Origin: a virus
Lineage: Duplodnaviria > Heunggongvirae > Uroviricota > Caudoviricetes
Direction: 5' to 3' (one strand)
Length of the DNA stretch: 37,278 nucleotides
Virus record (IMG/VR): IMGVR_UViG_2872698443_000007
The position numbers and the translations under genes were made by a program. Under the pieces are notes generated by a model that saw nothing but the letters and a program-made list of their open reading frames with translations, ran no database searches and was not told the DNA's origin. This document shows positions 11,195 to 33,329 of the stretch, one piece after another (position 1 is the first letter of the stretch; each line of letters begins with the position of its first letter).

Positions 11195-11782
11195 TCAACA
11201 TAATGCTGATTCAGGGGATTCATTGCTCTTATTTGCCGGAAATTTTCTATAAATTGTGGAAACACCTACATCAAAAATCAGTGCAATACGCTGTCTTGAT
11301 TCTCCGGCCTCGAGTAAACGTCCAATCTGTGCCCACTGTTCGGTGATCAACTTAGGACGGCGTCCACCTACTCTGCCTTTGGCGCGAGCTGCAGCCAGCC
11401 CCGCCCTGGTACGTTCAACTATCAGTTCGCGCTCCATTTCAGCCAGGGCCCCCATGACATGAAAAAAGAAACGGCCCATTGGGGTACTGGTATCAATACT
11501 GTCAGTCAGGCTTCGGAAATTCACGCCGCGTTCGCGCAGTTCCTCAACCAGAATGACCAGATGCCGCATACTACGCCCCAGCCTGTCCAGCTTCCAGACT
11601 ACCAGAGTGTCACCTGCTGATAATGTTCTGAGCAGTTTTTTCAGTCCCGGTCTGTCGGACTTCGTGCCGCTGATTTTATCCTCAAAAATCCGCTCGCATC
11701 CTGCGCACTCCAGCGCGTTACGCTGCAATTCCGTGTTCTGGTCATTTGTTGACACGCGTACATAGCCAATAAGCATGAGCAT
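11195..11782 (-). CDS. serine-recombinase DNA invertase (Hin/Gin/Cin/Pin family)
   Basis: 195 aa, MLIGYVRVSTNDQNTELQ... with the resolvase-type catalytic Ser motif (YVRVSTNDQ) and a C-terminal helix-turn-helix. Lies immediately outside the invertible tail-fibre segment. Confidence 0.85.
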   Translation of the reverse strand: MLMLIGYVRVSTNDQNTELQRNALECAGCERIFEDKISGTKSDRPGLKKLLRTLSAGDTLVVWKLDRLGRSMRHLVILVEELRERGVNFRSLTDSIDTSTPMGRFFFHVMGALAEMERELIVERTRAGLAAARAKGRVGGRRPKLITEQWAQIGRLLEAGESRQRIALIFDVGVSTIYRKFPANKSNESPESALC

Positions 11783-11803
11783 CCCCCTGAATAAAAACCG
11801 GAG

Positions 11804-12319
11804 ATGATGCCAGTTGCCCGTTATCTCTGCATTTTCATAAACGTTGGTTTGGGAGAAGGTGCTCCAGCTATTGGCGTTCCGTTCTTCTGGCCCTCCGCGG
11901 CAATGCCAAATACTGTAATCGACAGCTGGTCCAGTATGGTGTTTTTGAAGTTCAACGGCGCGAAATTCTCTGCCACTGATTACCCTGTGCTGGCGAAAGT
12001 GTTTCCTTCGCTGGTATTACCTGAAGCCCGCGGTGATTTCATTCGTATCTGGGATGATGGTCGTGGTGTAGATAGTGGACGTGGATTACTTAGTACGCAG
12101 TCTGACCTGATGAAACAATTTACTTTGCAATACTACGGTCCTTCTGCTGGTACTGGAACAAGAACGGTTTTCGCCCTCCAGAGTAATGCGAACGGCATAT
12201 ATACGAGTGGTATTAGTCAGAATGATGGTAGTGGCACCGCTGCGGCTTTTAATGTACCAGGCGGCACCGAAACACGCCCACGTAACATTGCATTCAACTT
12301 TTTAGTAAGGGCTAAATAA
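11804..12319 (+). CDS. alternative tail-fibre C-terminal cassette (promoterless in this orientation)
   Basis: Open frame reading ...INVGLGEGAPAIGVPFFWPSAAMPNTV... from the crossover site; would be fused to the constant part of H after inversion. The functional part probably starts at ~11858; the ORF-track start at 11804 is not a real start. Confidence 0.6.
   Translation: MMPVARYLCIFINVGLGEGAPAIGVPFFWPSAAMPNTVIDSWSSMVFLKFNGAKFSATDYPVLAKVFPSLVLPEARGDFIRIWDDGRGVDSGRGLLSTQSDLMKQFTLQYYGPSAGTGTRTVFALQSNANGIYTSGISQNDGSGTAAAFNVPGGTETRPRNIAFNFLVRAK
11832..11857. repeat. invertase crossover site (left, hix/gix-like 26-bp site)
   Basis: TTTTCATAAACG TT GGTTTGGGAGAA. The half-site GGTTTGGGAGAA (11846-11857) is the exact reverse complement of TTCTCCCAAACC at 13689-13700. 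Confidence 0.7.
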
Positions 12320-12912
12320 TGAAACCTGTTTTTGATAAAAATGGGCTGGCTACAGTGCCGGGTGATATGCGTTGTTTTTATTATGATGCAGTAACATCTG
12401 AATATACTGGCTGGTCTGATGAATATATTAATACTGGTGTAAGTATGCCCGCCTGTTCCACTGGTATTGACCCGGGCGAATACATTCCGGGGAAAGTGGC
12501 AGTATTTACGGGTAAGGGATGGAGCCATGAAGAAGACCATCGCAATGAGACCGTTTACTCAACTGAAAATGGCGCAGCTGTTACAGTGGATTATATCGGT
12601 GCCATCAAAGACGGTTATGTCACGCTTTCACCGTTAACGCCATACGATAAATGGGATGGTGAGAAATGGGTGACAGATACTGAGGCACAACACGGTGCCG
12701 CAGTAGAAGCGGCAGAAGCACAGCGCCAGTCACTGATTGATGCTGCAATGGCTTCCATCAGTCTGATTCAGCTGAAATTACAGGCCGGGCGGAAGCTGAC
12801 GCAGGCAGAAACCACCCGACTTAACATTGTGCTGGATTACATTGACGCGGTGACGGCAACAGATACCAGCACCGCGCCGGATGTCATCTGGCCTGAACTG
12901 CCGGAGGCGTAG
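12319..12912 (+). CDS. alternative tail-fibre assembly protein (U'/G'-like)
   Basis: 197 aa; TAATG overlap with the preceding cassette; C-terminus ...LDYIDAVTATDTSTAPDVIWPELPEA typical of tail-fibre assembly chaperones. Confidence 0.7.
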   Translation: MKPVFDKNGLATVPGDMRCFYYDAVTSEYTGWSDEYINTGVSMPACSTGIDPGEYIPGKVAVFTGKGWSHEEDHRNETVYSTENGAAVTVDYIGAIKDGYVTLSPLTPYDKWDGEKWVTDTEAQHGAAVEAAEAQRQSLIDAAMASISLIQLKLQAGRKLTQAETTRLNIVLDYIDAVTATDTSTAPDVIWPELPEA

Positions 12913-13396
12913 GCCATTCAATATCTGGCGCACTGGAGGAATCAACCAGTTCCAGTGCGTCCAGATAATCAAGCCATGAATTATATTGCGCCAGTTCCTC
13001 ACCTTTCAGACGACCAATAGCAGCCTTTCCTGGCCACTGCTTACTGTTAATATATTCATTAACTCGATTTATGAGTGCCTGTTTTTTTCGTTCCGCTTCT
13101 GACAGTTGTTCTTCATGAGTTAGCGGCGGTACGTCATCCCATGCAGGATAGCCATCATCACCCGCAACTCTCACCTTCCCTGGAGGTGGGGACAGGTACT
13201 TAATAAATATATCCTCATCAACTTCAACTCCATTATGAGGCCATAACCCAGACTCCTTATACTGACTTTCCAGAGTAAATGGGTAAAACATATTAGTTTT
13301 AGCATCGTAAAGATATTTACTCATTTTATCTTCCTGTAGCAAACCAGCGGCAACCAGCGACAGTTGGAACATTGAAGGATGGATTTCCTTTATCAA
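12884..13396 (-). CDS. G: tail-fibre assembly protein (G/U-like), currently expressed orientation
   Basis: C-terminus ...LDYLDALELVDSSSAPDIEWPTPP. 3' end overlaps the convergent alternative assembly gene. The real start is probably the internal Met at ~13324 (MSKYLYDAK...), 2 nt after the H stop. Confidence 0.7.
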   Translation of the reverse strand: MIKEIHPSMFQLSLVAAGLLQEDKMSKYLYDAKTNMFYPFTLESQYKESGLWPHNGVEVDEDIFIKYLSPPPGKVRVAGDDGYPAWDDVPPLTHEEQLSEAERKKQALINRVNEYINSKQWPGKAAIGRLKGEELAQYNSWLDYLDALELVDSSSAPDIEWPTPPAVQAR

Positions 13397-14750
13397 GAGA
13401 TCCCAGGTTCTCTGCTATGACATTTGAGTTAGTCAATTTATAGAATTGCCATACTGACATTTTCCCTGCCACAGGAGCCTGGTCATGTTCATTAATAGAA
13501 ATGACGGCTGTCGGAAATGGGATAGGAAAATTAATCAAAACTTCATTTGTTGTGGCCCCAGTTAGCCCCCATTGTTCAATATAACCATCCGGGCTTCGCC
13601 TCCATCCCGTCGTTGTATCTCCCCCACACTCCCACGCTGACATATCAGGAATTTGGTTTTGCCCGTTACCCACATCCCGTTTTGCCGCTTCTCCCAAACC
13701 AAGGTATGCGAGAAGACCAGCTACATCCTTTCCACTCAAATTAGTCAGCGTATTGTCCAGCGGTTGTTTACCTACCAGCGCATTAAGCATTGTCGTGGCA
13801 AAGTTCGGATCATTCCCCAGCGCCGCCGCCAGTTCGTTCAGTGTATCCAGTGCCGCAGGTGCAGAACCCACCATTGCCGCAATCGCCGATTTCACAAAAG
13901 CCGTAGTGGCAATCTGTGTATTGTTGACCGACTGCGCCGCCGTGGGGGCTGTTGGCGTTCCGGTGAGTGCCGGACTCGACAACGGTGCTTTTAGTGCCAG
14001 CGCATTGTTAATGGTGGTACTGAAATTCGGATCATTGTTAATGGCTGCGGCTATTTCTTTCAGCGTGTCCAGCGTGGCTGGCGCACCATTAATAAGGGCC
14101 GTCAGTGCCGCCTGTACAAACGCAGTGGTCGCAACCTGCGTGGTATTATTCCCCGCCGCTGGCGTTGGCGCTTTGGGGGTTCCGGTAAATGTCGGGCTGG
14201 CTTTTGGCGCGTACTGTGAATGTGGGTCCTGTGCAGCAAGATGTTTTGCCATCAGGTCATCCACGTACACCTTCAGCTCCAGTACCTTGTCATCCACATA
14301 CTTGCGGGTTGCCAGCACTACAGCAGGGTCGATTTTCAGGGTGATATTGTCCGTACTGCTGGTAATCAGCACCATGCGCACGGTCTGGGTGCGCCCGCTG
14401 CCTTCAGCCAGTTGCGGCTTATAGCTTTCCGGGCAGTTGCCCACGGCAATCAATGCCCCGGACTCATCAAACAGGCCCACTTCACGTATCCACCAACCGC
14501 CCTCGTTTTCAGGGATCACCTGTTCAGCAATAATCTGGCTGCTATTCTGCGGGTCGATATAAAGCATATTCAGCGCAGCCCGGCGTTTCTCATTTACCAG
14601 TGCCGTCTGCTTTGCGTCCGGCGTTGGCAATACTCCGCCGCCATCGCCCACCGCCATATGGGTAATTTTTAGCGGCACACCGAGCGCGGCGGCGCTGGCA
14701 AGTTTCGCCGCGCCAATATCCGTCAGCAGGGTATAAAATTTTGTGCTCAT
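13326..14750 (-). CDS. H: tail-fibre protein H (constant N-terminal part plus currently joined variable C-terminus)
   Basis: 474 aa, MSTKFYTLLTDIGAAKLASAAALGVPLKITHMAVGDGGG... Contains two tandem ~68-aa repeats; C-terminal 120 aa lie inside the invertible segment. Confidence 0.8.
   Translation of the reverse strand: MSTKFYTLLTDIGAAKLASAAALGVPLKITHMAVGDGGGVLPTPDAKQTALVNEKRRAALNMLYIDPQNSSQIIAEQVIPENEGGWWIREVGLFDESGALIAVGNCPESYKPQLAEGSGRTQTVRMVLITSSTDNITLKIDPAVVLATRKYVDDKVLELKVYVDDLMAKHLAAQDPHSQYAPKASPTFTGTPKAPTPAAGNNTTQVATTAFVQAALTALINGAPATLDTLKEIAAAINNDPNFSTTINNALALKAPLSSPALTGTPTAPTAAQSVNNTQIATTAFVKSAIAAMVGSAPAALDTLNELAAALGNDPNFATTMLNALVGKQPLDNTLTNLSGKDVAGLLAYLGLGEAAKRDVGNGQNQIPDMSAWECGGDTTTGWRRSPDGYIEQWGLTGATTNEVLINFPIPFPTAVISINEHDQAPVAGKMSVWQFYKLTNSNVIAENLGSLDKGNPSFNVPTVAGCRWFATGR
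13689..13714. repeat. invertase crossover site (right, inverted copy)
   Basis: TTCTCCCAAACC AA GGTATGCGAGAA. Lies inside the H gene exactly at the codons for GLGE; the alternative cassette on the opposite strand begins with the same GLGE codons. Confidence 0.7.
13767..14198 (-). repeat. diverged tandem duplication (2 x ~200 bp) inside tail-fibre gene H
   Basis: Protein repeats TGTPKAPTPAAGNNTTQVATTAFVQAALTALINGAPATLDTLKEIAAAINNDPNFSTTINNALALK and TGTPTAPTAAQSVNNTQIATTAFVKSAIAAMVGSAPAALDTLNELAAALGNDPNFATTMLNALVGK. Confidence 0.75.
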
Positions 14751-23192: not shown

Positions 23193-24959
23193 ATGAACAC
23201 CACACTGACACCCGCAGATCTCGATCCCCGTCGGCAGGCCATGCTGCTGTACTTTCAGGGATACCGCGTAGCCCGCATTGCTGAAATGCTGGGCGAGAAA
23301 GTTGCAACCGTTCACAGCTGGAAAAAACGCGACAAGTGGGGTGACTATGGGCCACTGGATCAGATGCAGCTCACCACCGCCGCACGCTACTGCCAGCTCA
23401 TTATGAAGGAGCACAAAGAAGGGAAAGATTTCAAAGAGATTGACCTGCTGGCGCGCCAGTCTGAGCGCCACGCGCGGATCGGCAAGTTTAACAATGGCGG
23501 CAACGAAGCCGACTTAAACCCTAACGTCGCCAACCGCAACAAAGGCCCGCGCCGTCAGCCGGAAAAAAATGTCTTCACCGATGAACAGATTGAGAAGCTG
23601 GAAGAAATCTTCCATTCCTCCATGTTCAACTACCAGCGCCACTGGTGGGAAGCCGGAAAAACCAACCGCATCCGCAACCTGCTGAAGTCACGCCAGATCG
23701 GCGCGACCTTTTACTTTGCCCGTGAAGCCCTGATTGACGCTCTGCTTACCGGACGTAACCAGATTTTCCTTTCCGCCAGCAAGGCACAGGCCCACGTCTT
23801 TAAGCAGTACATCATCGACTTCGCCAAAGAAGTGGAAGTGGAGCTGAAAGGCGATCCGATGGTGCTTCCCAACGGGGCCACACTGTATTTCCTCGGCACC
23901 AATGCCCGCACGGCCCAGAGTTACCACGGCAACCTGTATCTGGATGAATATTTCTGGATACCGAAATTCCAGGAGCTGCGCAAAGTGGCTTCCGGTATGG
24001 CTATTCACAAAAAATGGCGACAAACCTATTTTTCCACGCCATCCAGCCTGACACACAGTGCTTATCCGTTCTGGTCCGGTGCGCTATTCAACCGTGGGCG
24101 CAATAAAGCCGACAAGGTGGACATAGACCTGTCCCACAGCAATCTGGCTCCAGGCCTGCTGTGTGCAGACGGGCAATACCGCCAGATAGTCACCGTGGAA
24201 GATGCGGTGCGCGGCGGCTGTAACCTGTTCGACCTTGACCAGTTGCGCATGGAATACAGCCCGGACGAATACCAGAACCTGCTGATGTGTGAATTCGTGG
24301 ACGATCTCGCGTCCGTGTTCCCGCTCAGCGAGCTGCAGGCGTGCATGGTGGACAGCTGGGAAGTCTGGACCGACTTTCATGCACTGGCCCTGCGCCCGTT
24401 TGGCTGGCGCGAAGTGTGGATCGGTTATGACCCGGCAAAAGGTACGCAAAACGGCGACAGCGCCGGGTGCGTGGTGGTGGCTCCGCCAGCCGTGCCGGGC
24501 GGTAAGTTCCGCATTCTTGAGCGTCACCAGTGGCGCGGGATGGACTTCCGTGCCCAGGCGGACGCCATCAAAAAACTGACTGAACAGTACAACGTGACCT
24601 ATATCGGTATCGACTCGACAGGTGTCGGTCACGGGGTTTATGAGAACGTAAAAGCGTTCTTTCCTGCCGTCCGGGAGTTTGTCTACAACCCCAACGTTAA
24701 AAACGCCCTGGTACTCAAGGCCTACGACATTATCAGCCACCGCCGTCTGGAGTTTGACGCCGGACACACCGACATTGCGCAGTCATTCATGGCAATCCGT
24801 CGCGCAACCACCGCCAGTGGCAACCGCCCGACCTATGAAGCCAGCCGCAGCGAAGAAGCCAGCCACGCCGATCTGGCCTGGGCAACGATGCACGCACTGT
24901 TTAACGAACCGCTGCAGGGCGAGTCCGCCAATACCAGCAATATTGTGGAGATTTTTTGA
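23193..24959 (+). CDS. P: terminase large (ATPase) subunit P
   Basis: 588 aa; divergent from O; followed by the portal gene. Confidence 0.8.
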   Translation: MNTTLTPADLDPRRQAMLLYFQGYRVARIAEMLGEKVATVHSWKKRDKWGDYGPLDQMQLTTAARYCQLIMKEHKEGKDFKEIDLLARQSERHARIGKFNNGGNEADLNPNVANRNKGPRRQPEKNVFTDEQIEKLEEIFHSSMFNYQRHWWEAGKTNRIRNLLKSRQIGATFYFAREALIDALLTGRNQIFLSASKAQAHVFKQYIIDFAKEVEVELKGDPMVLPNGATLYFLGTNARTAQSYHGNLYLDEYFWIPKFQELRKVASGMAIHKKWRQTYFSTPSSLTHSAYPFWSGALFNRGRNKADKVDIDLSHSNLAPGLLCADGQYRQIVTVEDAVRGGCNLFDLDQLRMEYSPDEYQNLLMCEFVDDLASVFPLSELQACMVDSWEVWTDFHALALRPFGWREVWIGYDPAKGTQNGDSAGCVVVAPPAVPGGKFRILERHQWRGMDFRAQADAIKKLTEQYNVTYIGIDSTGVGHGVYENVKAFFPAVREFVYNPNVKNALVLKAYDIISHRRLEFDAGHTDIAQSFMAIRRATTASGNRPTYEASRSEEASHADLAWATMHALFNEPLQGESANTSNIVEIF

Positions 24960-25990
24960 TGGGAAAGAGTAAGAAAAACCGCACTGCGGCGACGAATCAG
25001 ATCCAGCATAAAAACCAAACTTCAGCCGAAGCATTCAGCTTCGGCGATCCCGTTCCTGTTCTGGACCGCCGAGAATTACTGGACTATGTGGAATGCGTAC
25101 AGATGGACCGTTGGTATGAGCCGCCCGTCAGCTTTGACGGACTGGCGCGCACCTTCCGCGCTGCCGTGCATCACAGTTCCCCGATTGCAGTAAAGTGCAA
25201 CATTCTGACCAGTACCTATATCCCTCATCCTTTGCTCAGCCAGCAGGCTTTTTCGCGTTTTGTGCAGGACTATCTGGTATTTGGCAACGCCTATCTGGAG
25301 AAACGCACGAACCGCTTCGGTGAAGTGATCGCCCTTGAACCTGCGCTGGCAAAATACACCCGACGCGGATTAGACCTGGATACCTACTGGTTTGTGCAAT
25401 ACGGTATGACAACCCAGCCGTATCAGTTCACGAAAGGCAGCATTTTTCATCTGATGGAACCGGATATTAATCAGGAGATCTACGGTCTGCCCGGCTATCT
25501 TTCTGCCATTCCGTCAGCCCTGCTCAACGAGTCCGCCACGCTGTTCCGTCGCAAGTATTACATTAACGGCAGTCATGCGGGCTTTATCATGTACATGACC
25601 GATGCCGCGCAAAACCAGGAGGATGTGAACAACCTCCGCAATGCGATGAAAAGCGCCAAAGGTCCAGGCAACTTCCGCAACCTGTTTATGTACTCGCCTA
25701 ACGGCAAAAAGGACGGGCTTCAGATCATCCCATTGTCAGAAGTCGCGGCGAAGGATGAATTTCTTAATATCAAGAACGTGAGTCGGGATGACATGATGGC
25801 AGCGCACCGCGTGCCGCCTCAGATGATGGGGATTATGCCTAATAATGTTGGGGGGTTTGGGGATGTGGAGAAGGCTAGTCGTGTTTTTGTTCGGAACGAG
25901 CTGATGCCTCTACAAAAAAGATTCCAAGAAGTAAATGAATACTTTGACGGGAACATAATCAGCTTTGAAGAATACAAACTGACCATCTAA
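24956..25990 (+). CDS. Q: portal protein Q
   Basis: 344 aa (same length as P2 Q as I recall); ATGA overlap with P. Confidence 0.8.
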   Translation: MMGKSKKNRTAATNQIQHKNQTSAEAFSFGDPVPVLDRRELLDYVECVQMDRWYEPPVSFDGLARTFRAAVHHSSPIAVKCNILTSTYIPHPLLSQQAFSRFVQDYLVFGNAYLEKRTNRFGEVIALEPALAKYTRRGLDLDTYWFVQYGMTTQPYQFTKGSIFHLMEPDINQEIYGLPGYLSAIPSALLNESATLFRRKYYINGSHAGFIMYMTDAAQNQEDVNNLRNAMKSAKGPGNFRNLFMYSPNGKKDGLQIIPLSEVAAKDEFLNIKNVSRDDMMAAHRVPPQMMGIMPNNVGGFGDVEKASRVFVRNELMPLQKRFQEVNEYFDGNIISFEEYKLTI

Positions 25991-26000
25991 AATAAATAAC

Positions 26001-26024
26001 AAAAAAGAGGGTTCCCCCTCTTTT
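26001..26024. terminator. bidirectional rho-independent terminator between Q and the cargo gene
   Basis: AAAAAA-GAGGG-TTCC-CCCTC-TTTT: hairpin flanked by A-run and T-run. Confidence 0.6.
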
Positions 26025-26029
26025 ATATA

Positions 26030-27796
26030 TTAATTATTATCGTATAACTCCTGAATTTTTGCTGGATTAGCAAAAAACCTTGCAGGATAAGCATTTGGAT
26101 AATTATCTTCGATATAATTTTCTGTCCTAGCTATTAATGCTGCTAAATTAGCAGTGATTTGTGCTGAATCAGGAGCAAGCTGAATGGTACTATTCTGTAA
26201 ATCTGACACCATATTCAACAGCACTGAAGCATAATATCTATTACCATGAGTTATTATTAAATGACGGCGACTATGCGTTGATTTATCTGTAGCTGCTAAA
26301 GTTGAGCTAATAGCACGTTCTATCACACGAAAATGGTTAACAGCATTTATTAACTTGATACCACTTAATCGCGGATTGAAAATTGTTCTATATAATGACC
26401 CTTCAAAATTTTCAAAAAACCTACCACGATTAGATTTTAAAGTTGCAACTATAGTATTATTTTTACTTAAGCAAGCTAGAGCATTCAAAGCCTCATCGAG
26501 ATCAATTACCTTGGCGTTAGACTGTAAATAATCCTCATCGGTTCGCAATAATTGGTATTGATACCCTTCAAGCACAAGCTCTCTCGCCAGTCTATGCTGA
26601 TCGGGTTGTTGTGAAGCAAAATCTCTTCCTAAAACTCTATTCTGGAAATTATTAGCTCTGGTTATTGCATTGGCATTGAGATCATTTACATCATTATTAA
26701 TTTCAATAAAACGAACAGGGACTTTAACTTGATAAATTCTATCGCCTAGCACATCCATAACACTGCCTAAACTACTCACAGTTTGCGCGCCGTTGATCAC
26801 ACTCACATCTTTAAAATCGAAAACCCCTCTTTCAGTGCCTGCAGCTGCGTTTCTTCTGTGAGGAATTAACTCGTTCACTAGTAACGTAATACCGTTATTG
26901 TAAAACCAAAACATTTCTGGATTATCAATTGCAGTTTTTTTTATTTCTTCGTTAACATCTGTCTTACCAAGCATATTTCTTATGTTTTTCGTAAAAAGGC
27001 GGGTTCCATATTGTTTCCACCAATTCCCAACCTGGTCCCCAGCTAAAGTTCCATAAAATGCTCTGTAAGGTTCATTAATAAACCCATAGCGTTCAACTTC
27101 TACGCCATCCAAATCAATTTGACCTCTTGAGCCAGTCTGCAACCAATGGACTAAATCCTCTGATGAAATCAAATGAACTTGAAACCCCCATTCTTCTTTC
27201 GGTGATTCTGTCGGGGTAAACGACGCTTCATTTAATTCACGTTGCCACTCTTGCATATCACGTAAAATATCTTCTGAGGCACCTTTTTTCCCTGTGTGAG
27301 TCATAGCGAAGATAAATTTATAATCAAATGAATTAAGAGCTGCGCTTATATCTGAACTCTTATCTTGAAGAATCTGGTCAAAAAGTTCATATCGTTCATT
27401 CTGAAGTTTTTCACAAGCATCCTTGAAGCACACAAAATCAGGTCTGCTCCAAGTACCATTTCCAGCCTGATTAAATTTGGACTGAACAACTACAACAATT
27501 TTTTCACTATGATTTATGACTATGCCATCAATGCCTCCATCCTCAGAACTGTCGCATACAGACTCACCTGCATGCTTTTCATCAACACCACCAAGTTGAT
27601 ACATCGTAAACGCCGCCAGAGCCCTACTTGCCATTTTAATATTGTAATCTTGTTGACTGGGTTGGCACTCTCGCTTATGAACATAGTCTTCAAACCTTTC
27701 TCTCAAAACACTACCAAGCCTTAGAGCTATAACTTGCGCCGTCGCCGCTGCAGCTACAGCGTTATCCTCAACTCGGAGATCTACAACGAATGCCAT
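26030..27796 (-). CDS. cargo protein with N-terminal Mrr-type PD-(D/E)xK nuclease signature; function unknown, candidate defence effector
   Basis: ~588 aa from the first ATG at 27796 (AAGGA ribosome-binding site 8 nt upstream); the ORF track extends to a TTG at 27823. Motif ...EDGGIDGIVINHSEKIVVVVQSKF... fits the restriction-endonuclease D-x(n)-Q/E-x-K pattern. No Walker A motif. AT-rich relative to flanking phage genes. Confidence 0.6.
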   Translation of the reverse strand: MAFVVDLRVEDNAVAAAATAQVIALRLGSVLRERFEDYVHKRECQPSQQDYNIKMASRALAAFTMYQLGGVDEKHAGESVCDSSEDGGIDGIVINHSEKIVVVVQSKFNQAGNGTWSRPDFVCFKDACEKLQNERYELFDQILQDKSSDISAALNSFDYKFIFAMTHTGKKGASEDILRDMQEWQRELNEASFTPTESPKEEWGFQVHLISSEDLVHWLQTGSRGQIDLDGVEVERYGFINEPYRAFYGTLAGDQVGNWWKQYGTRLFTKNIRNMLGKTDVNEEIKKTAIDNPEMFWFYNNGITLLVNELIPHRRNAAAGTERGVFDFKDVSVINGAQTVSSLGSVMDVLGDRIYQVKVPVRFIEINNDVNDLNANAITRANNFQNRVLGRDFASQQPDQHRLARELVLEGYQYQLLRTDEDYLQSNAKVIDLDEALNALACLSKNNTIVATLKSNRGRFFENFEGSLYRTIFNPRLSGIKLINAVNHFRVIERAISSTLAATDKSTHSRRHLIITHGNRYYASVLLNMVSDLQNSTIQLAPDSAQITANLAALIARTENYIEDNYPNAYPARFFANPAKIQELYDNN

Positions 27797-27976
27797 TAAT
27801 TTTTCCTTATAGAATATGTACAACGTTAGCAGTGATTAAAAGGTTACTCGTTAAGCGGAAATTGTACTACAACATTCTACTAAATATGGATATATCAATG
27901 AGTAAGAACTCATCTTTGCTAACTCACATACATTGTTAAAAATACTTAGCTTCGCTGTTCACCCCGTCGCCGCGCG

Positions 27977-27995
27977 CTCGTATCCCCGCCACGCC
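27977..27995 (-). other. putative cos site (cohesive end)
   Basis: Minus strand reads GGCGTGGCGGGGATACGAG. The first 13 nt match my recollection of the 186 cohesive end GGCGTGGCGGGGAAAGCAT (P2: GGCGAGGCGGGGAAAGCAC); overall 14 of 19 vs 186. Orientation points toward Q, as in P2. Confidence 0.5.
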
Positions 27996-28042
27996 TGCCC
28001 GCTTTATGTAGTGGTTTTCATGCGCCTGCATGACATAAGCAA

Positions 28043-28066
28043 AGGCCCGCCATTCCTAGCGGGCCT
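28043..28066 (-). terminator. hairpin downstream of the 290-aa cargo gene (possible terminator)
   Basis: Perfect 8-bp stem AGGCCCGC / GCGGGCCT with an 8-nt loop, ~100 bp past the gene stop; the following T-run is weak. Confidence 0.35.
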
Positions 28067-28167
28067 CAGCTAAAACGATCCTCAAACGATCATGCGGATT
28101 CATGCGGCATAGTCATGCACTTGTGTGGTTACGAAGGAATATAGTTGCGAAAATCGATTAAAATGCC

Positions 28168-29040
28168 TTAAGCTCTCTTAATCAACCCCTTATGCGTTGC
28201 TTTGGTAAGATAAGCTAATTCTTTAGGCCCCTTATCTCTAAAGCCCACCCATTCTGGTTGGATTTTTATAAAACTTGGAATTGCGGTTGCCAAGGCTGTA
28301 ACCATACCGGGAATAATACCGCCTGAATAACCAGCAATAGCAGCATGGTACAACGGTTTTAAAAATTCCATAACCTGCCCACCATCTACTTCTGGATTGG
28401 CTTTGACTCCCATTCTGATAGGATTTCTCCATTTCCCTTCGATAGCTTTATCAAGATTAACTACAGCCTCTTGTAATAAAGAAAAATTTTTAGCCCTCGT
28501 TAGATTAGGGTCTCTAGAATAAAGGACTTCAGTATACAGTTTTTCTAAGTACTCATGTAACGCATTAAGATCATCCTGACAATCATCTTTAAAACGTAAT
28601 ATATCTTCTATATGAGCATCTTTATCAGGAATTCTCAGAACATTAAACAACTCCAATCTCAACTGAAGGGCCGTTTTCTGTTCTTTATCATATATTAAAT
28701 TTTCCCCTGTTTGATGAAAGTGCCAATAAGTAGCAGGCTCGTTCTTCCTGAATTCATCCAATGTCTGCAACTGAAATTCCGTATATAAAAATGGAAAGTC
28801 TTGGATATTCAGCATACCATCATGTTTCATAATAGGTCTACGTAATACCCCATTATCTAATAATTCTTTTTCTTTAGGCACAATCGAGTGAATATTTTCA
28901 CTATCTAGAATAACCACATCATCCCAGTAAAAGCAGAAATAATTAATATCCTGCTCAGTTAAACCTGCCCCAAGATAGACCGTACTATTATTTCTATGAA
29001 AACTCATTTCATTAGGATTAGCTACAATGCCACGTTTCAT
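28168..29040 (-). CDS. hypothetical cargo protein, function unknown (position of P2 tin/old)
   Basis: ~290 aa from the ATG at 29040 (AAGGAG ribosome-binding site 5 nt upstream): MKRGIVANPNEMSFHRNNSTVYLGAGLTEQ... Strongly AT-rich. C-terminal hydrophobic stretch GGIIPGMVTALATAIPSFI. No recognisable catalytic motif. Confidence 0.6.
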   Translation of the reverse strand: MKRGIVANPNEMSFHRNNSTVYLGAGLTEQDINYFCFYWDDVVILDSENIHSIVPKEKELLDNGVLRRPIMKHDGMLNIQDFPFLYTEFQLQTLDEFRKNEPATYWHFHQTGENLIYDKEQKTALQLRLELFNVLRIPDKDAHIEDILRFKDDCQDDLNALHEYLEKLYTEVLYSRDPNLTRAKNFSLLQEAVVNLDKAIEGKWRNPIRMGVKANPEVDGGQVMEFLKPLYHAAIAGYSGGIIPGMVTALATAIPSFIKIQPEWVGFRDKGPKELAYLTKATHKGLIKRA

Positions 29041-29251
29041 TCTTGCTCCTTGATAAGCATACACATTTTAAGAATGACATATATTCTAATAATTTCAATA
29101 CATTATGAGTTATAACTAAAAGTGCAGCATAGGTCTCGCCCTGATAGATAATCAAGTGATTACTGTCTTTTTACTTATGGTTAACGCCTCTCAAGGCTCG
29201 CGGTTCAACCTTGCTGACGCCAGAAGCAGGTTCAGACGCCAGCAACGTTTC

Positions 29252-29485
29252 TTAATGCAGCCAGCTGTCGTCTTCCCACACCTTCTGCATAATTTTCATC
29301 ACTTGTTTTCTTTCTTCGTCCAGTTGCAATCCGGTAAGTTCCACACCGTTAGAGCTACCTTTGCGGATACGAATTACCGTTTTGGGATACAGGGGGCGCA
29401 GATTGCGGTAAAGCTCGGATTCAAGGGCGTCCAGTGTAGACTGGCTAATCTTCTGCTCTTTATCGATCATTATTTCAATGCGCAT
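29252..29485 (-). CDS. DinI-family protein
   Basis: 77 aa from the ATG at 29485 (GAGGTG ribosome-binding site): MRIEIMIDKEQKISQSTLDALESELYRNLRPLYPKTVIRIR...WEDDSWLH, resembling DinI in length and pattern (MRIE..., acidic C-terminus with W). Confidence 0.7.
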   Translation of the reverse strand: MRIEIMIDKEQKISQSTLDALESELYRNLRPLYPKTVIRIRKGSSNGVELTGLQLDEERKQVMKIMQKVWEDDSWLH

Positions 29486-29495
29486 AAAAGTCACC

Positions 29496-29684
29496 TCAGC
29501 TGATGACATCCATTGAGCGGTTGTATTCGTGGGTTCTGATTTTTGCCATGAGTTCATCTGTCAGTTCAGAAACCCACTGCAGAGCCAGCCCCTTCTCTTC
29601 ATCACTACACTCACTAGCCGCTACAAGCTTAAGAAAAAAATCAATGCGCTGGAGCTTCAAAGACTCCAAAAAATAGTCCTGCAT
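29496..29684 (-). CDS. small protein, first gene of the LexA-controlled operon; candidate Tum-like antirepressor
   Basis: 62 aa, AGGAGG ribosome-binding site; directly downstream of a LexA box and upstream of the dinI-like gene. Confidence 0.5.
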   Translation of the reverse strand: MQDYFLESLKLQRIDFFLKLVAASECSDEEKGLALQWVSELTDELMAKIRTHEYNRSMDVIS

Positions 29685-29724: not shown

Positions 29725-29744
29725 CACTGTTTATATTTACAGTA
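29725..29744. promoter_or_regulatory. LexA operator (SOS box)
   Basis: CACTGTTTATATTTACAGTA has CTGT-N8-ACAG with an AT-rich spacer, close to the consensus TACTGTATATATATACAGTA. Lies in the promoter region of the 62-aa/DinI-like operon. Confidence 0.7.
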
Positions 29745-29836: not shown

Positions 29837-32251
29837 TTAATACAGGTTTCGCCACTTATCATCTTCCTGCAAACGCTGGTTCCGATAGAAGATACGCAGG
29901 CCTGCTCCTGACGGAATACTGCCGCCGCGAAGGAGTAAATCGACCTCTTTCTCGCTGCCATCAAATCCCCTGGACTTCAGTTCATACACGAGCTGCAGTC
30001 GCTGATGGTCTGTAATTCGCTGTTTGTAGTCTTTACGCCGTTTCGGTTTCACCAGGCGTAACCTTGCTGCCAGTTCCCGGCGCTCTTTTTTGCTCATACT
30101 GTGCAGGTAATCGTGCAACTCCTTGTCATCCATGCGGGTGATATCCGTTCTGGTATCTCCATCAGCTGATTTGTCTTTCCCTTGTTGGTACAAATTTTCA
30201 GCAAGGGGACAGTTATTGCCACGAGTCCAAGGGGCGCAAGCGCCCTGGTCGGCTGCCGCCTCCTGAACGTCAACGGCCTTACGAACCATTTTCCACTTCA
30301 CTGCATGAGTGCAGATCTTGCCCTCTGCAATGGGTGACCAGATGCCATAAATACGAATACCGTGATCACCATAGGCGGTCGGCTCTTCGTTGATTTCATA
30401 AGCGGTTCTGATCAAGTGATATTTGCGGGGAACCAACACGCCGCCCTGCTTCATAATGTAGGTGGCAAAACAGCCAGCATCAGCAGCAGCCAGAATGGCA
30501 TCAAGACGCGGATCATCCAGTACCGGCGCACCTGCTTTTTTGTCACCCTGCTGCCTTGCCGCCTGACCAGCCAGCAATCGCAGTTCACGGTAAGCCTGAC
30601 GCCCCGGAATGCCAAAGAAGCGGAATTGCTGAACACGATGCAGAGACGCCCAGGCATTAACGTATTCAGCGTTATCACGCAGGGATTTACCCGTTTCCTT
30701 GCTGATCTCGCCAGCCAGACCACGCCCGTCAATGTTCTTACTGATGTATTTCGCGATGTAGCTTGTCGGCGTTCCTTTGCGCGGGTTAATCAGCTCAGAC
30801 TTAAAGCGTGGCCCCGTGTTATTGCCCAGTTCCTCGCGGTCTTCACGGATGGCAAACTTACGCAGTAATGCAGTGATGGCGCGGCGGTCTTTTTTACGCA
30901 TGAAGCACATGAGATGCCAGTGCACAGTACCGTCATGATGCGGCTCAGCCACCCGCACGCCATACCACCGCAATCCGGCTTTGTGCATCGCCTTACGAAA
31001 TGCAGCAAACATGCCGACCAGATAATCACTGCTTTGTCTTACCGTCGCATTTGTCCAGGTCGGGTTTGGTCTGCCGTTATTGAGCGTGGAATGGAAACGT
31101 GACGGACAGGTGATGGTGTAGAAAACGGCGCAGTCACCGCGCATTTCCGCGATAAGCTCCAGACCTTTAACGCAGGCCATCATCTCATTGCGGCGATGTG
31201 CCGGGTTGCTGCTGCTGGCGTTTACCACATCTTCCATATCCAGCGTGTCTCCGTCTTCGTTCACCAGTTCATGAGAACGGAAAAACTCCAGCGACTTGCG
31301 GCGCTGCTCACGTTTATGCGTCACTGCTTCATAGCTGACATAGGGAGATGCTTTTTTGCTGACCAGACAGACAGCACGCAACTGCTCTTCCCGCCATTCG
31401 CAACGCATCTTCCACAATTTTCGATACCACCAGTCGGCGCAAAGCATACGTGCCAGCGAACCCGGTATGAGTTCATAGGGCACAGGTTTGCGGCGGTTTC
31501 TTTTCCGACGAAGTTTCTCAAACGCAGGCGGGATAACATCCAGACGCAGGGTTTCCGCAGCCACCTTTTCCCATGTCTTGCGGATTTCTTCTGGCTTAAC
31601 GTCATCGGTGGCGTACAAATCACCACAAGCGGCCTCAAGACACATGCTCATATGCGCTGCTACCAGGGTGGACAGGCGTTTCACCTGATCCTGGCTCATT
31701 TCAGGCAGGATCAGCAGCCCCTCCAGCCCTTGATGGCTTGCCATAAAACGGAAAGAAACAGATAGCTGACTGTCACGTACACAATCCAGTCGCTCCAGGC
31801 ATGGCTTAATCGTCTCACGCAAATAGCGGGAATAAGCCTTTGGCCTGCCCAGGCTGCTGAAGTATTCGATACGTTGCATCAGCGGCTTGCTGATATGAGA
31901 AGGCTGGGCGCTGACATCTGCCAGAATGACCATGTCCGGGTTAAAACGCTGCTGCTCATGCGCCAGCTTTGCCCGGCTAATGAGCTTATCCTGCTCCATT
32001 TCGCGCTGGACAGGATCACGGGATTCATTAAAGAAATAACGCTCCCAGACCTGCTCACTCAGTGCCTCGCGGCGCAGTTGTTCCTGCTCGTTATCGGCAG
32101 CGTACAGAGTGATCAGGTTTGAAAGTGCAGACTCCGGCGCAACTTCCGCCGGATCCAGATAAGGGTTAATGGCCTTTTTCGGGCCGTTCCATGAAAATGC
32201 TGCGGCAGCCTCGTTAAAGCCGCTAGAGTTGCTCATATCGTCATGACTCAT
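29837..32251 (-). CDS. A: replication initiation endonuclease A (rolling-circle)
   Basis: 804-aa protein in the early operon downstream of dam. Confidence 0.75.
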
Positions 32252-33105
32252 ACACGCACCTCGTACACAGCAGAACTATCCACGCCACGCGAAGGATCAA
32301 ATCCCATCCAGCAGCGCGCCCCGGAAACAGCAATGATTTCTGTTGCAGATTTACTCTCGCCAGCTGACACGCCGATGCTGCGTTTTGCCTTGATGTAGTG
32401 GTGAGTGAAATTGCGATACAGCGAACGGATCAGGGATGTGTCACTGTTAGAAACAATGACCGGATGACCTTCTGATGATCGATATTCAAGAACGGATGCC
32501 AGGTGATACTGGTCATCTTCAGTGAAGCCGTCAGTGTGATAACCGGAAAACGTGCCGTCATACGGCGGATCGCAATACACCACATCCCCCGCCTTCAACA
32601 TCGCCAGCGTTTCATCAAAGCTGGCGCAGATAAACGTTGCTCGCTGGGCCTTTTCTGCAAATGCGTGAATTTCTTTTTCAGGGAAATACGGATTTTTATA
32701 ATTACCGTAGGGAATGTTGAAATGCCCGCTCTTGTTATAGCGACATAAACCACGGTAACCGTGACGATTGAGATACAGGAAATATACCGCTTTCATGAAA
32801 TCAGTAATTTCAGTTGAGTAATTAAACTCCTGCCTTATGTTGTAATAAGCTAGGTCACTGTTTGCTTCCTCAAACAAAGTTCTGGTCCGCGATATAAACG
32901 CCTCGCAATCAGCGGCAATCTTTTTATAGAGGTTGATTAAATCAGGATTAATATCCGCAACCAGATAGCTGGGGTAATCCGTCTCCATCATCACAGCACA
33001 GGAACCCGCGAAAGGTTCAACCAGTCGCGGGCCAGCAGGTAGGTATTTTTTCAGTTCGGACATAATTGCGGTTTTATTTCCCGCCCATTTCAGGATGGTG
33101 CTCAT
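32248..33105 (-). CDS. DNA N6-adenine methyltransferase (Dam-like, alpha class)
   Basis: Start at the internal [11 protein letters not shown]...; motif I PFAGSCAV and catalytic DPPY (VYCDPPY) visible. Confidence 0.8.
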
Positions 33106-33329
33106 ACAGCACCTCCGTTGTAATGTTTGCCTTTCAGCTCTGCGATTTCCTGACAGGTAATGCAAAGCTGCACTCCAGGAATGGCACGGCGGCGTGCTGG
33201 CGGAATTGGTGCTTCACATTCAATGCAAAGCACGCGAGACACGCCCGGTGTTTTGGCACGGGCAGCACGGATATGGCGCTGGCGTTCTTCTTCAACGCGC
33301 TGCTGTACGAGATCCATTGCATCAGCCAT
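33102..33329 (-). CDS. TraR/DksA-family C4 zinc-finger protein
   Basis: 75 aa; CIECEAPIP...CITCQ four-cysteine finger. Confidence 0.7.
   Translation of the reverse strand: MADAMDLVQQRVEEERQRHIRAARAKTPGVSRVLCIECEAPIPPARRRAIPGVQLCITCQEIAELKGKHYNGGAV

Follow-up and report, generated by a model that had tools for sequence, protein, structure and literature searches.

The window, as we call the whole 37,278-nucleotide stretch analysed here (IMG/VR virus record IMGVR_UViG_2872698443_000007), is occupied by an Escherichia coli prophage of the P2/186 type, inverted relative to the standard P2 map. We focus on the interval between its portal gene Q (24956-25990, plus strand; Pfam Phage_portal) and its replication gene A (29837-32251, minus strand; Pfam Phage_GPA, E = 3.5e-128), where two AT-rich accessory genes flank the cohesive-end packaging site, cos. 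Beyond Q, the minus strand carries in order a gene of the AIPR/AbiU1 family (26030-27796, 588 amino acids), a gene for a DUF6236 protein (28168-29040, 290 amino acids), a DinI/Tum-like gene (29252-29485; 77 amino acids in RefSeq relatives), an open reading frame (ORF) for 62 amino acids, orf62 (29496-29684; PHROG 698, 3.6e-38), and gene A, which forms the right-hand backbone limit of the hotspot discussed below. The gene order from gpA to Q was confirmed in RefSeq relatives. The DinI-like gene, named as such in an earlier reading of this DNA (hereafter the original prediction), is a true match to the DinI family (Pfam, E = 1.3e-22) and belongs to the conserved backbone together with orf62, which was found in every relative inspected. 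Positions 26000-29250 are 100% identical to three complete E. coli chromosomes, for which RefSeq gives the two accessory products as 'AIPR family protein' and 'DUF6236 family protein'.

Base composition and the cos block

The original prediction described an AT-rich stretch at this place, and the GC calculation demonstrated that it is real. The GC content of 26000-29250 is 0.381 versus 0.525 for the remaining window, and lies far below that of 551 non-overlapping 3251-bp windows elsewhere (mean 0.534, standard deviation 0.036, minimum 0.44; z = -4.2). The bias is strongest at third codon positions, where the GC content (GC3) is 0.277 in the AIPR gene and 0.292 in the DUF6236 gene (whole-gene GC 0.38 and 0.36, respectively), versus 0.693 in the terminase gene P (23193-24959, plus strand; Pfam terminase gpP), 0.603 in Q and 0.571 in gpA. 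The limits of the stretch had been placed at the terminator of Q and at the DinI-like gene near 29.25 kb, and each placement holds in part. A bidirectional intrinsic terminator of Q (plus strand) and the AIPR gene (minus strand) is indeed predicted at 26003-26024 (RNA folds of -11.8 and -14.0 kcal/mol, T-runs on both strands), and matches tQ of P2 and tW of 186 in position, but the drop in GC begins earlier, in the final ~90 nt of Q (25901-25990, GC 0.344). The same holds for homology to relatives, which we surveyed in the 80 IMG/VR loci with the closest portals (93-100% identity) by mapping the end of Q, the core of cos and the DinI/gpA end of every locus, so that the frequencies given below are those of this lineage. 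Homology stops at 25917-25940, inside the 3' end of Q. At the opposite limit, it restarts close to the proposed point, at 29182 (38 loci) or 29242-29254 (21 loci), whereas the composition recovers only partly there (GC 0.45-0.46 for the DinI-like gene and orf62) and fully at gpA, ~29.9 kb.

When aligned to the cos sites annotated in P2, 186 and P4, the DNA between the two accessory genes shows a predicted 19-nt cohesive end, GGCGTGGCGGGGATACGAG (27995-27977, minus strand). As read off the alignments, it is identical at 15/19 positions to the cohesive end of 186 (GGCGTGGCGGGGAAAGCAT) and at 14/19 to that of P2 (GGCGAGGCGGGGAAAGCAC, shared by P4). The surroundings also correspond to those in P2, 186 and P4: a GCGCGC lies directly beyond the 19-nt end, and the right-end side bears the AAAACC..AAAGCGGGC motif and repeated GCAT(G/T) motifs. 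We infer by homology that cos is cleaved at 27977-27995. The ATG of the AIPR gene (27796) lies ~180 nt, and the stop codon of the DUF6236 gene (28168) ~172 nt, from the cohesive end. The proposal that accessory genes sit on both sides of the packaging site was thus confirmed, as a P2/186-type cos lies between them. After the predicted cut, the outermost gene of the virion genome would be the AIPR gene at the left end and the DUF6236 gene at the right end, and it follows from the cos position, again as proposed, that the two genes come to lie side by side only when the genome is circular or integrated.

The cohesive end is part of a conserved cos block (27971-28121, GC 0.566) composed of the GCGCGC, the 19-nt end and ~125 nt of the right-end side with the GCAT(G/T) repeats. 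Across 70 unique relatives, column conservation in the block is at least 90%, and it collapses on either side. The conserved determinants are markedly asymmetric, with ~125 nt on the right-end side and only 7 nt (GCGCGC and one base) on the left-end side, and this asymmetry holds in the lineage of the window, P2, 186 and P4. Since the determinants extend only 7 nt leftward, cargo can sit immediately beside the left end. The block also contains a strong hairpin followed by UUUGCUU (28042-28067, minus strand; RNA fold -26.9 kcal/mol, z = -4.0), which is conserved in relatives and is likely a terminator that insulates cos and the left-end slot from right-arm transcription.

Neither cargo gene occurs at this position in P2 or 186. 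In P2 (cohesive end 1-19, terminator tQ 160-181, Q stop at 187) and in 186 (cohesive end 1-19, tW 164-187, stop of portal gene W at 196), the interval from cos to the portal gene is free of genes; across cos, tin and old are found in P2, and tum (DinI-like) and orf97 in 186. The presence of the same two genes in these references would have argued against acquired cargo; their absence therefore leaves that part of the original prediction in place. We also considered whether the AT-richness reflects a structural or regulatory need of packaging, for example DNA bending or silencing by H-NS near cos, instead of foreign cargo. AT-rich DNA does lie on either side of cos, and the spacers adjacent to it are 33-39% GC. 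Nevertheless, the low GC resides mainly at the third positions of codons in long, intact ORFs (GC3 0.28-0.29), the flanks vary between relatives while the cos block is conserved, P2 and 186 package with only ~170 nt from cos to the portal gene, and relatives with empty slots exist. This explanation is the least credible of those weighed here.

Two cassettes on either side of cos

The stretch had been regarded as a single AT-rich island, and this view did not hold. The conserved 150-bp cos block of normal GC content (27971-28121) splits the region into a left-end, portal-side cassette (~25920-27970) with the AIPR gene only and a right-end cassette (28122 to ~29182) with the DUF6236 gene only. 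Breakpoints relative to the 80 relatives cluster at the corresponding limits, namely 25917-25940, 27971, 28118-28121, and 29182 or 29242-29254. Each cassette is found without the other in other E. coli genomes: the AIPR module lacking DUF6236 matches 26000-28121 of the window, and the DUF6236 module lacking AIPR matches 27958-29250, both with at least 99% identity. In a set of 5426 complete E. coli genomes, this AIPR allele was present in 9 and this DUF6236 allele in 22; the two occurred together in 3. For instance, E. coli strain N39 combines the AIPR gene with two different genes in the right-end slot, and strain 22-245 combines the DUF6236 gene with an empty portal-side slot, in which ~350 bp including cos lead to the portal gene. 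The two cassettes assort independently.

A single acquired island, or a system of two genes that cos divides and that are joined only in the circular or integrated form, could account for the similar AT-richness of the two genes (GC 0.38 and 0.36; GC3 0.28 and 0.29), their location side by side on the same strand in the prophage, and the three E. coli genomes that carry both with 100% identity. We rejected both versions because of the independent assortment, and regard them as very improbable, as (i) 6 of the 9 AIPR carriers lack DUF6236 and 19 of the 22 DUF6236 carriers lack this AIPR gene, at 99% identity or more, (ii) the breakpoints coincide exactly with the borders of the cos block, (iii) the two genes are parted by this GC-normal backbone block with its terminator-like strong hairpin, and (iv) some orthologues of DUF6236 face an empty portal-side slot, and others have different partners. 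Since the two modules occur separately, their adjacency in the circular form has no demonstrated functional meaning.

The layout seen in the window is common among its relatives. We located cos in 74 relatives (Q at least 93% identical), of which 73 have a Q-to-cos interval of 532-3529 bp and only one has an interval of 182 bp, i.e., an empty slot as in P2 and 186. Both flanks were present in 71 relatives; the right-end slot is empty (218-219 bp) in 23 of them and both slots are filled in the other 48, so cargo on either side of cos is the majority state among close relatives (48/71). The two slots draw on separate sets of genes, as none of the cargo clusters of at least 150 amino acids (49 portal-side, 25 right-end) is common to both. 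They also differ in polarity: all 90 portal-side ORFs of at least 150 amino acids read from cos toward Q, whereas the right-end ORFs are mixed (37 versus 10). By their Pfam matches, the contents of the slots are domains typical of defence systems. Those of the portal side include PIN_12, AIPR, GmrSD, reverse transcriptase (RVT_1), AAA_15/AAA_21, DprA, Cap4 nuclease, SieB, TIR/ThsB/SEFIR, Schlafen AlbA_2, OLD-type TOPRIM and KAP NTPase, and those of the right end include DarT with Macro, HEPN_LA2681, KAP NTPase, IS110 transposase, DUF6694 and DUF6236.

The portal-side variation extends into the portal gene itself. The last ~22 (17-24) codons of Q (~25917-25990, GC 0.34) are hypervariable between relatives and form part of the variable cassette, while the remainder of Q is 93-100% identical among relatives. 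This tail keeps a pattern of residues (..LN.W....I..F..Y.L), and in all 72 loci, the window included, each tail variant was seen with one adjacent cargo cluster only. Thus, the cassette boundary lies inside Q, and the cassettes carry their own portal tail.

An insert between cos and Q could also mark a decaying prophage, i.e., a defective element that is unable to package. There is an insertion sequence (IS) transposase at the edge of the window, degraded relatives exist in Hafnia, and in one relative an IS lies beside DUF6236. Nevertheless, the P2-type gene set of the window is complete and intact from gpD to the integrase, neither cargo ORF is disrupted, 73 of 74 relatives also have a filled portal-side slot, and two records of phage genomes, vB_EcoM-813R9 and Klebsiella phage ST11-OXA48phi15.3, hold cargo in the same slot. 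We therefore consider decay quite improbable.

Gene products and transcription signals

The portal-side protein belongs to the AIPR family (Pfam PF10592, 110.7 bits versus a cut-off of 25), and its residues 143-563 match the AbiU profile of PADLOC (5.8e-24); it also matches PHROG 1841, 'Abi alpha-like abortive infection mechanism' (4.5e-196). The model built by AlphaFold2 from 31 homologues has a mean pLDDT (predicted local distance difference test score) of 79 and predicts an N-terminal PD-(D/E)xK nuclease domain with a fold like those of FokI and MspJI and with conserved catalytic residues: D86, D90, Q105 and K107 are invariant in the alignment and make up a D..QxK motif, the motif type of MspJI-like enzymes. 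Compared with FokI, AspBHI and MspJI, the nuclease domain shows 11-20% identity over 133-151 aligned residues. Unlike those enzymes, the protein has no recognisable SRA domain or DNA-recognition domain of their kind, and the rest of it consists of the AIPR domain and a helical C-terminal domain. A search with the AIPR profile found no match by sequence among PDB sequences. We tried MzaE of the MZA system as an identity for this protein and rejected it, as the NCBIfam score of 52.9 bits falls far short of the cut-off (1050), and no MzaA-D genes adjoin this one, which is the only gene from cos to Q.

A close known counterpart is the abortive-infection protein AbiU of Lactococcus. The Pfam and PADLOC profiles cover most of the window protein, the lengths are similar, and a FokI-like nuclease fold is predicted from an AlphaFold model in both cases; unlike AbiU, the window protein has no AbiUii partner, and it is distant in sequence. 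According to a review (PMC13064643), AbiU resembles a restriction endonuclease, as its AlphaFold2 model can be superimposed on 1FOK, and the only documented phenotypes of the family are the delayed phage transcription and weak protection conferred by lactococcal AbiU. Judging from these profile and fold matches, the AIPR protein is most likely a single-protein abortive-infection or restriction-like defence, and the family-level evidence for such a role is strong. We suppose that its AIPR and C-terminal helical domains would sense infection, upon which the PD-(D/E)xK domain with the D..QxK motif would cut nucleic acid.

The right-end protein matches DUF6236 over its full length (PF19749, 4.4e-21; 75.8 bits versus a cut-off of 26.2) and PHROG 23128, whose function is not annotated. 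The family comprises 582 clusters at 50% identity, nearly all of ~280-300 amino acids, with a uniform length near 285. In the library searched, no main text dealt with DUF6236; we found the name only in a supplement of PMC9122126. Residues 229-262 form a hydrophobic stretch rich in Gly, Ala and Pro, with a maximum Kyte-Doolittle 19-residue mean of 1.63, i.e., a borderline membrane segment. The genomic contexts of the family are all phage and all near the packaging end (outside P2-type loci, as judged from terminase genes). Orthologues with 58-72% identity stand alone in the same right-end slot of P2-like prophages; more distant homologues lie between the lysis genes (holin-endolysin) and a lambda-type Nu1/gpA terminase, and others upstream of Terminase_4-type small terminase genes in HK97-like prophages. 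These accessory ('moron') loci of lambdoid and HK97-like phages, which extend from the lysis genes to cos and the terminase, resemble the window in having DUF6236 homologues at the packaging end, and differ from it in the phage backbone and the type of terminase. Taken together, we tentatively see in DUF6236 a phage-borne accessory gene whose likeliest function is single-gene exclusion or defence, possibly exerted at the membrane.

Several observations on individual members of the family are worth recording. The only domain fusion seen is an N-terminal SEC-C zinc-binding motif in a few members, among them the distant homologues P0178 and P0266. In one relative (L094, 5904-6935), a DDE_3 (IS630-like) transposase gene directly follows DUF6236, roughly where the cos block is expected, and this insertion may have disrupted the packaging of that prophage. 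In Hafnia alvei (L087-L089, 4100-8450), a degraded P2-like remnant has been reduced to pieces of the integrase and portal genes, DUF6236, a gene for an AAA_15/AAA_21 protein, and ogr; here, both genes flanking cos have outlived the phage. The remnant adjoins an Asp-Al_Ex/TrkA_C permease gene, and the same two Pfam domains occur in the permease gene flanking the prophage in the window (2001-3686).

The spacer between cos and the AIPR start (27797-27970, minus strand, GC 0.33) is the presumed promoter region of the AIPR gene. That between the DinI-like gene and DUF6236 (29041-29251, minus strand) is composed of conserved backbone with a stem-loop (29182-29251) and AT-rich, cassette-specific DNA (29041-29181); we do not call this stem-loop a terminator, because it has no U-tract. 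Promoter-like sites were fewer than in shuffled sequences, and a reading of the two upstream spacers gave only weak candidates. In the spacer between gpA and orf62, a sequence with the LexA-box consensus CTGT-N8-ACAG (29727-29742) occupies the position of the SOS promoter p95 of 186; it is the sole perfect match in the window, where 0.52 would be expected by chance, and the spacer aligns only partially with 186 p95. By analogy with 186, the box suggests SOS control of the operon of orf62 and the DinI-like gene, and possibly also of the downstream DUF6236 gene. According to the annotation of 186, orf97 is part of the p95 operon under LexA control, and transcripts extend into it by reading partially through t95a. 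Since DUF6236 lies on the same strand, downstream of the DinI-like gene, a comparable SOS-dependent read-through may be possible, and the predicted hairpin at 28042-28067 would stop such transcripts ahead of cos and the AIPR gene.

The right end of 186, arranged as p95 (LexA) - tum - t95a - orf97 - t95b - cos, is a close known counterpart of the right arm of the window: both have gpA, an SOS promoter region with a LexA box (putative in the window), a DinI/Tum-like gene, one accessory gene and cos, and the cohesive end of 186 is the closest to that of the window (15/19). Unlike 186, the window has DUF6236 instead of Orf97 as the accessory gene, an extra 62-amino-acid ORF ahead of the DinI-like gene, and cargo between cos and the portal gene, where 186 has none before W.

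The remainder of the window holds further features of the prophage and its surroundings. Directly upstream of gpA, a gene for a D12-class N6-adenine (Dam-like) DNA methyltransferase (32248-33165) is found, likewise in many relatives; it is a further accessory function of the lineage and is absent from that position in P2. A probable invertible tail-fibre segment (11195-14750) contains a serine invertase gene (11195-11782, minus strand; Resolvase and HTH_7), the fibre gene H (13326-14750, minus strand) and an ORF for an alternative C-terminal part of the fibre (11804-12319, plus strand), as well as two Caudo_TAP chaperone genes that face opposite ways (12319-12912, plus strand, and 12884-13396, minus strand). 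Its borders are formed by inverted repeats of 27 nt (11832-11858 and 13688-13714), which are similar to the crossover sites of Gin and Cin. Near the left end of the window, a DDE_Tnp_1 IS transposase gene (144-1112) lies ~0.9 kb upstream of the permease gene mentioned above. No tRNA gene was found in the window.

Relation to the known gpA-gpQ hotspot

We conclude, with a probability of roughly 80%, that the locus is the cos-proximal gpA-gpQ hotspot of P2-like phages, occupied here by two independent AT-rich cassettes that are exchanged by homologous recombination and carry cargo benefiting the lysogen. On this reading, both cassettes are foreign DNA, probably swapped between related phages through recombination anchored in the body of Q, in the cos block, and in the DinI-like gene with its flank. 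Both cargo genes would be expressed from the prophage, to the advantage of the lysogen, with DUF6236 as a candidate gene for defence or superinfection exclusion at the packaging end of several phage types.

The hotspot itself is well documented. Rousset et al. (2022; PMC9122126) described the gpA-gpQ region beside cos as a hotspot of P2-like phages, in whose 18,150 E. coli loci they counted 1650 arrangements; several of its systems were validated by experiment. 'DUF6236' is listed in their Table S5B as system #125 with 23 occurrences, differing by one residue from the window protein, and the tables also list arrangements containing AIPR, as well as AbiU. Moura de Sousa et al. (2026; PMC13586616) reported rapid swapping at the hotspot, and AbiU in both P2 and P4. 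The window agrees with the gpA-gpQ (tin-old) hotspot in its location between genes A and Q with cos inside, as well as in the hundreds of arrangements, the rapid swapping and the short systems of one or few genes. Since the locus has been described and DUF6236 catalogued, the finding is an instance of a known phenomenon with catalogued cargo, and not a new kind of system.

Several points weigh against this conclusion, in particular against a defensive role of the cargo. In the portions of PMC9122126 covered, an AIPR protein from the P4 hotspot (pFR77) appears among the 'additional tested systems' of Table S2B, which we read as no protection against the eight-phage panel; this protein is tied to that of the window by family only. 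A consensus scan of the minus strand found no convincing sigma-70 promoter upstream of either cargo gene. For DUF6236, it is location alone that points to defence: the protein has no PADLOC or NCBIfam match, its profile found no solved relative among PDB sequences (best E = 1.1), and the AlphaFold2 model built from 12 close homologues was unusable (pLDDT 48.9). Such hotspots are also known to carry partition systems and toxins (PMC9122126). Finally, the frequencies of our survey come from the 80 closest portals and may not extend to P2-like phages in general.

These points leave some room for cargo that is not anti-phage at all, with DUF6236 serving the SOS or lysis-lysogeny circuitry of the phage, as orf97 may be taken to do in 186, or another kind of lysogenic conversion. 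In favour of such a role, DUF6236 occupies the position of 186 orf97, with its p95 operon and t95a read-through, orf62 and the DinI-like gene, which share the strand of DUF6236, are preceded by a perfect LexA box, DUF6236 has no match in the defence database PADLOC, and such hotspots also contain partition and toxin genes. Nevertheless, DUF6236 has no detectable similarity to 186 Orf97 or P2 Tin (hhalign of the DUF6236 profile, probability below 1%). Of 71 relatives, 23 have nothing in the right-end slot, and what fills it elsewhere is highly variable, so its content is dispensable for the phage; other right-end cassettes include DarTG, HEPN and KAP NTPase; and the AIPR gene on the far side of cos has strong family-level evidence for defence. 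A non-defensive cargo is thus unlikely, albeit much less so than the other alternatives considered above.

Within the reading of the locus as a cos-proximal defence hotspot, some features depart from the published descriptions. The gpA-gpQ hotspot has been presented as one locus 'adjacent to cos' in the passages covered, whereas the window has two slots around a fixed 150-bp cos block, one of which, on the portal side, is absent from P2 itself. Neither cargo gene of the window is among the systems validated in PMC9122126, nor was this AIPR sequence found in the portions of its supplements covered. We did not find the two-slot split, the portal-side polarity or the linkage of portal tails in the passages of PMC9122126 and PMC13586616 covered, and the figures of these articles could show them. 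The bipartite layout, the uniform polarity from cos to Q and the cargo-linked portal tails are possibly new.

The hotspot of P4 (gop-beta-cII, by cosL) offers the nearest parallel to the portal-side slot. There, too, cargo starts on the left-end side a few bases past the 19-nt end and GCGCGC; gop and beta, which begin at a distance of 247 nt from cosL, are oriented outward from it, as are the portal-side ORFs of at least 150 amino acids in the lineage of the window. The two loci also have the cos block (GCAT repeats and 19-nt end) and AIPR genes in common, and the P4 AIPR clone of Rousset et al. has cassette DNA directly after cos (PMC9122126). Unlike in the window, the far anchor of the P4 hotspot is the integrase gene, not the portal gene, and P4 and P2 were reported not to exchange defences with each other (PMC13586616).

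The locus is a textbook case of P2-like phages keeping rapidly swapped anti-phage genes beside their packaging site. Its practical value is modest: it provides a cleanly delimited pair of single-gene cassettes with exact breakpoints, which could be cloned directly, and DUF6236 is a reasonable candidate for testing because phages of several unrelated types have it at their packaging end. The two-slot structure and the linkage of portal tails could help refine the boundaries of hotspots in surveys, as whole gpA-gpQ intervals merge two independent loci. A more speculative reading, less likely than not, would regard gpA-gpQ as two mechanistically distinct hotspots on a fixed cos block. If so, the cassettes would be long-lived alleles exchanged only among P2-type phages, and the linked portal tail would be hitch-hiking with its cargo. 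In addition, DUF6236 could be a new protein that acts by itself in phage defence or exclusion and is found repeatedly at the packaging end of prophages of the P2, lambda and HK97 types.

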